Assembly: GCA_017465505.1 (NCBI GenBank)
Contig: JAFTWB010000002.1
Coordinates: forward strand, 263 to 64,262
Direction of reading: 5' to 3'
Length of the DNA: 64,000 nucleotides
Source: Clostridia bacterium
Lineage (GTDB): Bacteria > Bacillota > Clostridia > Oscillospirales > Acutalibacteraceae
The position numbers and the translations under genes are program-made. Shown here one piece after another: positions 47,351 to 49,514 of this stretch. The stretch's first letter is position 1. The number at the start of each line of letters is the position of its first letter. The notes below the pieces were generated by a model that saw nothing but the letters and a program-made list of their open reading frames with translations, searched no databases and was not told the origin of the DNA.

Positions 47351-48193
47351 TTAGTTTACCTTCTTTTTCTTATTTTTTATTTTTTTAGGTTTTGGTTCAA
47401 TGGCTTCGCCGTAGAAAACAGAAACCAGTGTTGCAAGAACATAGGTCTGGATTATGGCGTGAAGCAATGTGAACAAAACGCCTACAATAACGGGTAACAC
47501 AAAGCTGAGGCTTACATAATAATACACAAGCTCAGTTACCAGAAGACCGCTTAAAAGTGCACCAAAAAGACGAAAGCTCATTGAAATAGGAAGGGAAAAA
47601 TCCTTCAGCACACTTAAGCCGCCCTTAACTCCTCTGAAGCGGATACCGCCACCCAGAATAATTCCATAGGACATAACGCCCAAAGCAATGGCGGCGTTTA
47701 TATCCGAAATGGGAGCAGGCAGAGAAAGAGCCGCACCGTGAGTATTTATCCACTGAACACCAAAAAGCTCAAAGAGGGTGCTCACAAAAATATACACGCC
47801 TGCACTGAAAATATACGCACCTATAAACTTAGGCTTATGAGGGCTGTTTTTTCCTGCCATACCCGAGAAAAGCCCGACAATAGTTTCAATGGCACATTGA
47901 AATTTTCCGGGTACTGTTTTAAATTTCGGAATGGCGAAAATCCTTATAAGGGCGGCAGCCAAAAGCAACACCGCCGTTACAATGTAAGCAGACACCACCG
48001 CCGGGTTTACAACAAGGGAGAAAAATTCAACCTTATTGGTTTCGTGCAGAACACTGTCCTGCATAGCCTGCTGAATACTTTCGTGCTTCGCCGCCGGCGG
48101 CCAAAGCACAATAATGCCTGCAAGGATCAACGCAATTACCAAAAGCCAAACAGCAAGAAAAATCGCTTTTTTCTTAGTTAGTCTGGTTTTCAC
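47351..48193 (-). CDS. atpB: Fo subunit a
   Basis: VPGKFQ..IE; AP..DIN; PISMSFRLFG; IIQTYV...L. Confidence 0.92.
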   Translation of the reverse strand: MKTRLTKKKAIFLAVWLLVIALILAGIIVLWPPAAKHESIQQAMQDSVLHETNKVEFFSLVVNPAVVSAYIVTAVLLLAAALIRIFAIPKFKTVPGKFQCAIETIVGLFSGMAGKNSPHKPKFIGAYIFSAGVYIFVSTLFELFGVQWINTHGAALSLPAPISDINAAIALGVMSYGIILGGGIRFRGVKGGLSVLKDFSLPISMSFRLFGALLSGLLVTELVYYYVSLSFVLPVIVGVLFTLLHAIIQTYVLATLVSVFYGEAIEPKPKKIKNKKKKVN

Positions 48194-48452
48194 TTTATCC
48201 TCTCCTTACCTAATCTGATGTTTATTATTCTAAAGACAACACCATTATACAACTTTAAATTCTTAATACAATATTTCTGAGAAAGCTTTATGCAATTTTC
48301 TTAATAAATTCTGAAAATAAACCCGGCTTATGCAGATTTTGCCTAATTTTAACAAAAATATGACTGACACACTTTCCTTACAAAAACACAGCAGCCGCCT
48401 TCGGCACAACCACATAAGGCAGTATTTTGAAAAATGCACATAGCGTGCCGAA

Positions 48453-48626
48453 ACTAAGTTTGCCCTGACGGGCAAGTGAAGTTGCCTTGCGACAGTGAAG
48501 TTACTTCGTAGTGAAGTTAGCTTCGCCGGTGTTTTTGGGCAAACTTAACTTCACATTTGCCGAAAAGCAAATACTTCACTGTGATTCATTACAACTTCAC
48601 TTCAAACAGCAGGTTTGAAACTACAC
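48453..48626. repeat. Branched palindromic element A (AGTGAAGTT/AACTTCACT cores separated by mini-hairpins)
   Basis: AGTGAAGTT at 48475, 48494 and 48510, plus a degenerate copy at 48453; inverse cores at 48547, 48572 and 48593, plus a degenerate copy at 48619. Confidence 0.85.
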
Positions 48627-48909
48627 AAAAAAGATACCACCCGAAAAAATTTTCATTCTTCGGGCGGTTTGGTCTTATACCTTAACAAGCAGGGAATTTG
48701 TACGGCAAATTCCAAAGTTTTATCGGAATAGCGGAAAAGTAAAAAGGGGCTGCCTCACTTAGTTAGTGAGACAGCCTCCTTTTTCTTTGATAAAAAACCT
48801 CGTATCAAATGATACGAGGGTGGGAGGCTGCGAACTCTTTAAATGCCAACTTAAAGTTGGTCTTTTCCAAGGTCAATAAGCCGCAAAATACCATATTGAC
48901 CTAAATTTT

Positions 48910-49081
48910 AGTGATATTGTGCCTACGGCACAGTGATATTTTCGCTACGCAAAAGTGATATTGAAACCTGCGGTTTCAGTGATATTATATTCGCCATAAA
49001 ACTGGGCGAAGCCCAATATCACTCGGCTTTAGACGAATATCACTGCGTAGCAATATCACTCGCCCCAAGGCGAATATAACT
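48910..49081. repeat. Branched palindromic element B (AGTGATATT/AATATCACT cores separated by mini-hairpins)
   Basis: AGTGATATT at 48910, 48932, 48954 and 48978; AATATCACT at 49015, 49036 and 49052; AATATAACT at 49073. Confidence 0.9.
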
Positions 49082-49115
49082 GAAAAAGACGATTGCTTTC
49101 GCAATCGTCTTTTTC
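49082..49115 (-). terminator. Terminator hairpin 3' of tRNA-Tyr
   Basis: GAAAAAGACGATTGC-tttc-GCAATCGTCTTTTTC perfect 15-bp stem. Confidence 0.8.
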
Positions 49116-49200
49116 TGGTGGGAGAAGGTGGATTCGAACCACCGAAGTCGTCGACAACAGATTTACAGTCTGCCCCCTTTGGCCGCTCGGGAATTCTCCC
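49116..49200 (-). tRNA. tRNA-Tyr(GTA)
   Basis: Reverse complement GGGAGAATTCCCGAGCGGCCAAAGGGGGCAGACTGTAAATCTG...GGTTCGAATCC...CCCACCA; 85 nt with a long variable arm and CCA. Confidence 0.97.
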
Positions 49201-49237
49201 ATATGAAAACCTGCTTTAAATTAAAGCAGGTTTTGTT

Positions 49238-49313
49238 TGGAGCTGGTGGACGGACTTGAACCCCCGACCTGCTGATTACAAATCAGCTGCTCTACCAACT
49301 GAGCTACACCAGC
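49238..49313 (-). tRNA. tRNA-Thr(TGT)
   Basis: Reverse complement GCTGGTGTAGCTCAGTTGGTAGAGCAGCTGATTTGTAATCAGC...GGTTCAAGTCC...CTCCA; 76 nt. Confidence 0.97.
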
Positions 49314-49354
49314 GTGTTTCGCTGTGGCGTCTCGTGTATCGCCAACAGTTAGAG

Positions 49355-49383
49355 ATTATAGCAGAAGCTACTTGAAATGTCAA
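49355..49383 (-). promoter_or_regulatory. Sigma-A promoter of the tRNA pair
   Basis: TTGACA-17 bp-TATAAT on the minus strand. Confidence 0.85.
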
Positions 49384-49514
49384 TACTTTTTTGAAAAGTT
49401 TTTTGAAAAAATTTATATTTCTTTTCAATCCCCCTTTATCCCCTGTTTTTGTGTATTCATTATATACATATTATTGAGTAAAAGCCCTTTGTTTCTCGGC
49501 TTTCCTACAAAACT

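Follow-up and report, generated by a model that had tools for sequence, protein, structure and literature searches.

Two structured repeats lying 3′ of a tRNA-Thr/tRNA-Tyr operon in a bacterium of the clostridial family Acutalibacteraceae (GenBank assembly GCA_017465505.1) belong to the kind catalogued in Rfam as Gut-1 (RF01706), and arrays of this kind directly precede genes encoding PF05635 proteins, which resemble those of 23S rRNA intervening sequences (IVS) and Avd, both in the same genome and in most of the relatives sampled. The repeats, here called elements A and B, were found in a 64,000-nt stretch of contig JAFTWB010000002.1 (positions 263 to 64,262 of the forward strand), which is referred to as the window and supplies the coordinates used below. 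We put at about even the chances that A and B are orphan docking arrays, that is, arrays standing without a gene, for a pentameric PF05635 protein and that they act as folded DNA. Their membership in the Gut-1 family and the linkage of that family to PF05635 genes are well supported. A first-pass annotation, made from the letters of the window alone, had regarded the two elements as subfamilies of a non-autonomous repeat structured as single-stranded DNA (ssDNA) and had pointed to HUH transposases as possible partners.

Architecture and family membership of elements A and B

Each element consists of a series of short cores followed by inverted cores, neighbouring cores being separated by mini-hairpins with C(GNA)G loops. 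The two elements are about 288 bp apart and share their orientation with the tRNA operon. Their parts are as follows.

48910-49081: element B, four AGTGATATT cores, then three exact and two degenerate inverted cores
49011..49082, minus strand (Gut-1 orientation): arm of B beside the tRNA genes (the "distal" arm), Rfam Gut-1 52.9 bits
48987..49014, no strand assigned: centre of B, with the hairpin ttcgcc/ggcgaa, ATAAAACT and the mini-hairpin gggcGAAgccc
48909..48990, plus strand: second arm of B, four AGTGATATT cores, minus-strand loops GTA, GTA, GCA, Gut-1 45.1 bits
48451-48622: element A, three AGTGAAGTT cores, then three inverted cores
48547..48622, minus strand: tRNA-side arm of A, AGTGAAGTT-type cores on the minus strand, preceded by the terminator hairpin 48636-48668
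48451..48522, plus strand: second arm of A, three AGTGAAGTT cores, Gut-1 38.5 bits, under the cut-off

In element B, AGTGATATT starts on the plus strand at 48910, 48932, 48954 and 48978 and the exact inverted core AATATCACT at 49015, 49036 and 49052, with degenerate inverted cores at the end (AATATAACT, 49073-49081) and in the centre (ATAAAACT, 48996-49003). Element A follows the same design with the core pair AGTGAAGTT/AACTTCACT: AGTGAAGTT starts at 48475, 48494 and 48510, preceded by a degenerate ACTAAGTT at 48454, and the inverted cores are AACTTCACA (48547), TACTTCACT (48572) and AACTTCACT (48593). The four cores and four inverted cores that the first-pass annotation had attributed to each element thus approximate B, whereas A has three of each; the sizes and the gap (given there as about 280 bp) are nearly right, the AG-to-TA core change between A and B is indeed mirrored in both arms, and all the c-GNA-g loops listed are present on the strands named. 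The clustering of cores in A and B is not due to chance: AGTGATATT occurs nine times in the window against 0.66 expected, seven of the nine inside B, and of the 11 matches to GTGAAGTT five are packed into 125 bp of A. Folded as ssDNA, both elements form the branched rod that had been proposed, in which core 1 pairs with the last core, and so onward, while the mini-hairpins branch off (B, -43.7 kcal/mol, z = -9.7; A, -36 kcal/mol, z = -5.3).

In an Rfam covariance-model scan, the tRNA-side arm of B exceeds the Gut-1 gathering cut-off, which is 50 bits. Below it are the second arm of B, which matches on the opposite strand, and the arm of A, both of them divergent linker variants. The sequence itself and the cmscan alignment alike show at least three hairpins parted by a conserved GUGAAAU-type linker. 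Elements A and B are, therefore, of a catalogued kind and as a kind they are not new, so that the novelty implied by the first-pass annotation, which had itself listed an Rfam match as refuting, falls away. What is absent from the Rfam record is the mirror-symmetric two-armed DNA element around the Gut-1 motif. The 2010 description of Gut-1, based on human-gut metagenomes, presumed it to be a small RNA (Weinberg et al. 2010, PMC2864571), and we found no subsequent paper on its function.

Dispersal of the arrays in the genome and across the order

In the source genome (a 1.9-Mb assembly, 84% complete, labelled G000), 56 sites match Gut-1 at E ≤ 1 and ten of these exceed the cut-off. More than 50 array arms are present in all, and a model-free census distinguished at least seven linker families (GTGATAT, GTGAAGT, GTGGTAT, ATGATGT, ATGAAGT, CGATATA and ATGAAAT), many of the arms forming part of mosaic intergenic repeats. 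B-type elements, discrete units of about 175 bp, number about 12 copies and A-type elements six, in agreement with the earlier view that they are two subfamilies of a single non-autonomous family with many copies. The B-type linker and GTGGTAT are mixed inside single elements. In general, an element repeats one and the same linker, which is clade-specific, whereas the hairpins vary in sequence with their pairing kept: 141 of 217 spacers between linkers are distinct, 57% fold at -2 kcal/mol or better compared with 5% of shuffled ones, and two copies in the source genome differ by one compensatory pair. The contrast between constrained linkers and free hairpins argues that the linker is read by sequence and that the hairpins are purely structural.

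That the arrays are mobile is suggested only by their dispersal. Of the two marks of a miniature inverted-repeat transposable element (MITE), namely, terminal inverted repeats and a target-site duplication, the inverted arms are present, and inspection of 14 aligned copies by eye revealed no consistent flanking direct repeat of the kind that the first-pass annotation had proposed to look for. Array orientation shows no pattern relative to proxies for flanking open reading frames (ORFs), and two complete single-contig relatives (G002, G033) have no Gut-1 matches. In the source genome, the GNA-loop strand falls on the strand of negative GC skew in 41 of 60 "solo" arms, a weak lead toward a possible link with replication direction given that arms are clustered, many "solo" arms have degenerate partners and contigs are short.

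Two further observations concern the make-up of the repeats. Beside GTGGTAT and CGATATA arrays (G000:C23:16064-16208, C23:39765-39947, C16:408-546) there are tandem 27-33-nt repeats of the form "GTGGCTAACGG..GCCCTG" and a recurrent CCACCGTTGATG; these are further modules of the array-bearing intergenic mosaic. In addition, one B-type element with the hairpins tcccGAAAggga, ctgtgc..gcacag and gaaatc..gatttc is nearly identical in three families of the order (G000:C9:16838-17013, G000:C25:178195-178371, G407:C2, G154:C30 and G363:C9), which suggests either a strong constraint on hairpin sequence or horizontal spread.

PF05635 genes as likely partners of the arrays

The source genome encodes three PF05635 genes, on contigs C1, C5 and C11, each directly preceded by a two-armed array. 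No PF05635 gene lies in the window or directly 3′ of A or B, consistent with the earlier observation that the window holds no partner gene. Among 89 PF05635 genes of relatives (at least 55% identity, at least 250 nt of upstream sequence), 74 have an array upstream, with a proximal arm most often composed of five units. In 53 of 96 gene-linked loci, a co-oriented tRNA gene of widely varied identity ends just before the array, and in L014, L029, L057, L070, L071 and L090 it is the very pair tRNA-Thr(tgt)-tRNA-Tyr(gta) that is followed by array and PF05635 gene. The order found in the window, that is, tRNA-Tyr, terminator and B with its Gut-1-oriented arm first, corresponds to the polarity of the tRNA-linked family and recurs in all ten tRNA-adjacent orphan B-type loci sampled. 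Because gene-linked and orphan loci share tRNA placement and polarity, the window locus is the canonical post-tRNA site without the gene, and the accumulation 3′ of tRNA that had been noted for A and B is a preference of the family as a whole. In 51 of the 74 loci, the last linker directly adjoins a near-consensus sigma-70 promoter, the end of which is about 22 nt from the start codon; with a terminator before it and a promoter after it, the array therefore lies between the two, outside the predicted transcripts.

The PF05635 proteins are small four-helix bundles, and homologs form pentamers. The solved structure closest to the PF05635 protein is 2RLD (E = 1e-29), with five chains in the PDB entry. 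More distant PF05635 paralogs (40-54% identity; L125, L127, L135, L153, L156, L160, L165, L167 and L168) are accompanied by tandem heptamers without hairpins, often in two inverted arms, and since these arrays do without hairpins, the repeated heptamer emerges as the shared feature. At L165-type loci, an extended -10 box (TGTATAAT) is located between the two heptamer arms. Another unusual arrangement is seen at the C1 locus (L010:580-1400, G000:C1:55580-56400), where three tandem 310-bp units, each with a two-armed ATGATGT element, separate a tRNA gene from the PF05635 gene, and a consensus promoter follows only the last of them.

The genomic distribution of the arrays points in the same direction. 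Gut-1 matches number 0, 1, 0, 0 and 0 in five genus-mates without PF05635 whose genomes are at least 99% complete, and expansions of at least eight matches occur only in genomes with array-type PF05635 genes. Collectively, these results indicate that the likely partner of the arrays is a PF05635 protein and not an HUH transposase.

For element B, a particular partner can be proposed. The array 5′ of the PF05635 gene on contig C5 of the source genome is 83% identical to B, and exact AATATCACT arrays stand directly 5′ of genes of the C5 clade in G433, G363, G339, G138, L198 and L215. We surveyed 400 genomes of the order for an exact triple AATATCACT pattern and for C5-clade proteins (at least 66% identity); relatives in this sample are non-independent and no p-value is attached to the counts. 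The pattern occurs in 58 genomes, its reversed control in none, and the protein in 34 (8.5%). The pattern is present in 22 of the 34 genomes that have the protein compared with 36 of the 366 that do not, the association has the same direction in all 12 families holding both, and 12 of the 15 genomes with at least eight pattern matches encode the protein. The B core is the predicted cognate core of the C5-contig protein clade. Arrays of the A type (ACTTCAC) precede PF05635 genes in L079, L121, L123 and L151, and orphan cores match the resident genes well, if imperfectly, in G073, G067 and G017.

The tRNA operon and its variable 3′ flank

The elements are flanked and separated by the following features.

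49355..49383, minus strand: sigma-70 promoter of the tRNA-Thr/tRNA-Tyr operon, TTGACA-17-TATAAT, 12/12 consensus matches
49238..49313, minus strand: tRNA-Thr (tgt)
49116..49200, minus strand: tRNA-Tyr (gta)
49082..49115, minus strand: 15-bp terminator hairpin, abutting the first core of B
48601..48890, no strand assigned: variable filler between A and B, with three more minus-strand terminator-like hairpins and a 55-nt conserved piece

The 15-bp terminator hairpin probably belongs to the element, because every B-type copy in the genome has at its tRNA-side end a long hairpin, the sequence of which differs from copy to copy. Together with those of the filler (48798-48819, 48748-48776 and 48636-48668), it makes four minus-strand terminator-like hairpins in succession 3′ of a single tRNA operon (48636-49115), and the region 48150-49450 contains 13 terminator-like sites against 1.0 expected from shuffles. 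The 55-nt piece of the filler (48662-48716), which holds the hairpin ggaatttg/caaattcc, has counterparts of 86-94% identity among other genus-mates and in a second family of the order, and there too it adjoins B-type arrays (G026:C32 and G017:C41).

Strain variation was examined in DNA contigs of four metagenome runs and yielded one robust structural variant: in contigs from two other studies (X4, X7), 48599/48600 is joined to 48891, so that the filler of about 290 bp is skipped, and in the X4 contigs 49 different letters take its place. Other contig joints (48919 to 49112; 48474 to 48510, with nine shared letters and low depth) had short sides and were not relied on. No clean empty site, as envisaged by the first-pass annotation, was found either in these contigs or at the orthologous sites of genus-mates. 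In the genus-mates, unrelated DNA follows tRNA-Tyr at the orthologous site and, therefore, the boundaries of an insertion are not definable. In L094, L097, L098 and L099, the place of B 3′ of tRNA-Tyr is taken by a repeat of about 190 nt, present once or twice in tandem, which contains the T-box-like "gggtggtacccg", ends in a terminator and has no Rfam match at E ≤ 0.001.

Folded DNA, RNA or relics

The loops of the arrays are mostly of the kind expected of DNA. Triloops closed by C-G account for 72% of loops, with C(GAA)G, C(GCA)G and C(GTA)G on the ..TCAY strand and C(TTC)G on the opposite one; the DNA-type character that the first-pass annotation had attributed to them is borne out, C(GNA)G triloops being overwhelmingly dominant. 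Such C(GNA)G sequences form extraordinarily stable mini-hairpins in DNA, whereas their RNA counterparts are far less stable (PMC13037366, PMC3201870). The core-to-core spacing is continuous between 16 and 26 bp, with even values favoured (a triloop plus a stem of 2k bases), which is incompatible with phased duplex sites and fits extruded hairpins. The arms are mirror images, so that both DNA strands look alike. Wobble pairs favour the GNA strand (18 G-T against 6 A-C), although these counts are small and come from related loci.

A complete unit consists of a tRNA operon, a terminator hairpin, an arm of four or five "RTGRnnT" linkers, a centre, about five inverted linkers and a promoter with its PF05635 gene. 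In the mechanism that we propose, the protein would dock by sequence on the 7-9-nt linkers, each subunit of its ring probably taking one of them, and the mini-hairpins would be collapsible spacers in which only the pairing and the C(GNA)G loop count. The array may work folded and single-stranded, most likely as DNA that is extruded or exposed in replication, and in gene-linked copies the position of the last linker against the -35 box suggests autoregulation. Elements A and B would be dispersed copies still bindable by a resident protein, which for B would be the product of G000:C5:24514-24876. The placement of the arrays, their polarity, their loop and spacing statistics and their co-occurrence with the gene are observed, whereas binding by the protein, its stoichiometry, the use of DNA over RNA and a role in spreading are what we infer.

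Several observations weigh against this explanation. For this PF05635 subfamily, binding to nucleic acid is a prediction, and because each gene sits next to its own array, the two would be expected to diverge together even if they did not interact. Across 68 array-linked proteins, linker position 3 (A or T) tracks residue 64 (E versus Q/H) in 68 and residue 110 (K/R versus N/T) in 67, but these associations represent only one to four independent changes on the tree, a number that does not permit a sign test, and are not significant; no residue matches linker position 7 (C or T) in the same set. Among the B-type loci sampled in other genomes, 27 of 29 are orphans, orphan arrays occur in G014, G041, G044 and G047 without a detected gene, and neither A-type nor CGATATA-type arrays have a cognate gene in the 84%-complete source assembly. 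Further points concern the choice between DNA and RNA: GNRA tetraloops, a hallmark of RNA, make up about 15% of loops; in about 14 of the 74 gene-linked loci only 4-26 nt separate the array from the start codon, which leaves no room for a promoter, so that the array must be transcribed there; and the fixed polarity of the arrays relative to the tRNA gene (10/10) would suit a role in RNA as well.

The same features are part of the case for a structured noncoding RNA, the Gut-1 small RNA as Rfam has it, which would be a 3′ trailer or read-through product of the tRNA operon or a 5′ leader of the PF05635 gene serving, for example, as a processing stem or protein-binding leader. The arms match an Rfam covariance model, the hairpins show compensatory variation, the arrays are co-oriented with the upstream tRNA gene at the gene-linked loci as well as at the orphan ones, and in about 14 loci they reach the ribosome-binding site; moreover, the PF05635 genes located inside the IVS of 23S rRNA lie within RNA stems. 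We nevertheless consider this explanation unlikely, given that the motif is present on both strands as a mirror pair, so that one transcript would combine a GNA-loop arm with a UNC-loop arm, that the arrays follow a terminator and usually precede the promoter, that the prevailing C-G-closed triloops have little stability as RNA and great stability as DNA (PMC13037366), and that the copies dispersed in this single small genome exceed 50. Rather unlikely, too, is the alternative that the arrays are relics of a selfish IVS-like mini-cassette, composed of arms and a PF05635 gene and inserting after stable-RNA genes, of which A and B would be decaying leftovers, now functionless except perhaps as terminators. 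Several features of the loci speak in its favour. Besides the prevalence of orphans, the contigs of other strains that join A and B without the filler and the excess of terminator-like hairpins, the number of Gut-1 matches differs sharply between close relatives (31 in G000, one in G014), the site 3′ of tRNA-Thr/Tyr is empty, occupied by an array only or occupied by array and gene depending on the lineage, and in the orthologous B copy of G014, the closest relative, linkers and flanks are kept and hairpins 2 and 3 are wholly replaced. However, neutral decay would erase the identical linkers, hairpin pairing and GNA loops that the orphans retain, nearly identical arrays are found in different families (see above), and no recombinase, target duplication or insertion mechanism is known for the arrays.

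A plain double-stranded operator or iteron array, bound by a DNA-binding protein without folding, would account for repeated, sequence-specific linkers, for the abutment of the array on the -35 box and for a two-armed symmetry that is typical of operators. It appears improbable because a spacing of 16-26 bp puts successive sites on different faces of B-DNA, because palindromic spacers, compensatory changes and strand-specific loops are left unexplained, and because the sites of the heptamer paralogs repeat every 7 bp. The partner suggested by the first-pass annotation, an HUH transposase (RAYT or IS200-type) acting on a REP/REPIN-like ssDNA substrate, is very improbable. Inverted pairs of hairpin-bearing repeats are indeed dispersed between genes, their loops are of the ssDNA type and the genome has two Y1_Tnp genes; however, no array lies within 15 kb of either of these (C11:169187 and C21:48065), the genes with which the arrays do co-occur are those of PF05635, and a REP is one hairpin with a conserved 5′ tetranucleotide rather than a linker array.

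Further candidates were set aside. A CRISPR array needs repeats of at least 23 nt and unique, non-palindromic spacers, whereas the repeats here are 9 nt long and the "spacers" are palindromes of 7-17 nt. Integron attC sites and multi-site transposon ends of the Tn7/Mu type were, like CRISPR, dismissed on architecture, the matching genes of all three not having been searched for. An intervening sequence of 23S rRNA does not apply to elements that are intergenic, lie 3′ of tRNA genes and have both arms on one side of the gene.

Returning to docking arrays of a PF05635 ring, it is a further and doubtful step to regard arrays and ring as a new kind of genetic element, in which a sequence-specific pentamer on a DNA strand folded by mini-hairpins would drive the proliferation of arrays 3′ of stable-RNA genes without a known transposase, recombinase or reverse transcriptase. 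If this were true, one system would show itself in the "Gut-1 RNA", in the heptamer repeats seen in many phyla and in the rRNA-IVS proteins. Gut-1 has stood as an orphan among motifs since 2010, and the PF05635/IVS proteins outside retroelements have been unexplained since the 1990s; with the mirror-symmetric repeat, its placement between terminator and promoter and its tracking of one protein clade across families of gut Clostridia, the two unknowns become one testable protein-nucleic-acid pair. Rfam may accordingly be filing a DNA-level element as a small RNA. For the window alone the significance is modest: A and B add two orphan copies, at a tRNA site of the canonical kind.

Comparison with known systems

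The arrays share with Gut-1 as recorded in Rfam the three or more small hairpins on a conserved GUGAAAU-like linker and the occurrence in gut bacteria. They differ in that the Rfam entry is a one-strand small RNA from unknown organisms, whereas here the motif makes up one of the two halves of a mirror-symmetric DNA repeat of 175 bp, with more than 50 arms per genome and at least seven linker variants, most of them under the cut-off, and it follows terminators and is associated with a PF05635 gene. The ORF-bearing IVS of 23S rRNA in Leptospira and Coxiella (S23p/PF05635) have in common with the arrays the protein family, the association with stable-RNA genes and the complementary arms. In those, however, the ORF lies between the two arms, which are part of the rRNA and are cleaved as RNA, whereas here both arms are 5′ of the gene and most copies have no ORF.

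The REP/BIME/REPIN elements with their RAYT proteins offer a parallel in being dispersed intergenic palindromic repeats that form inverted doublets and module mosaics, but the arrays show no RAYT linkage, comprise multiple linker-plus-hairpin units and go with a non-enzymatic four-helix bundle. Avd of the diversity-generating retroelements is a pentameric barrel that binds reverse transcriptase and nucleic acid (PMC10053308). It has a homologous fold, is of the same family and provides a precedent for a nucleic-acid-binding ring; here, in contrast, no reverse transcriptase was found in the 84%-complete genome and there are no template or variable repeats.

With respect to DNA structure, d(GCGNAGC) mini-hairpins are known from sites of ssDNA priming and from promoters, namely, the phage G4 origin, RSF1010 ssiA and the N4 promoters (PMC13037366), and C(GNA)G triloop hairpins likewise dominate the arrays. 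In the cases known so far, a phage or plasmid origin has one such hairpin, whereas the arrays are chromosomal and carry 8-10 hairpins on a repeated linker. Finally, rings of the TRAP type provide an analogy for identical short single-strand motifs numbered to the subunits of a ring, without homology: TRAP binds RNA triplets, and the binding of a PF05635 ring to the arrays described here is a proposal.

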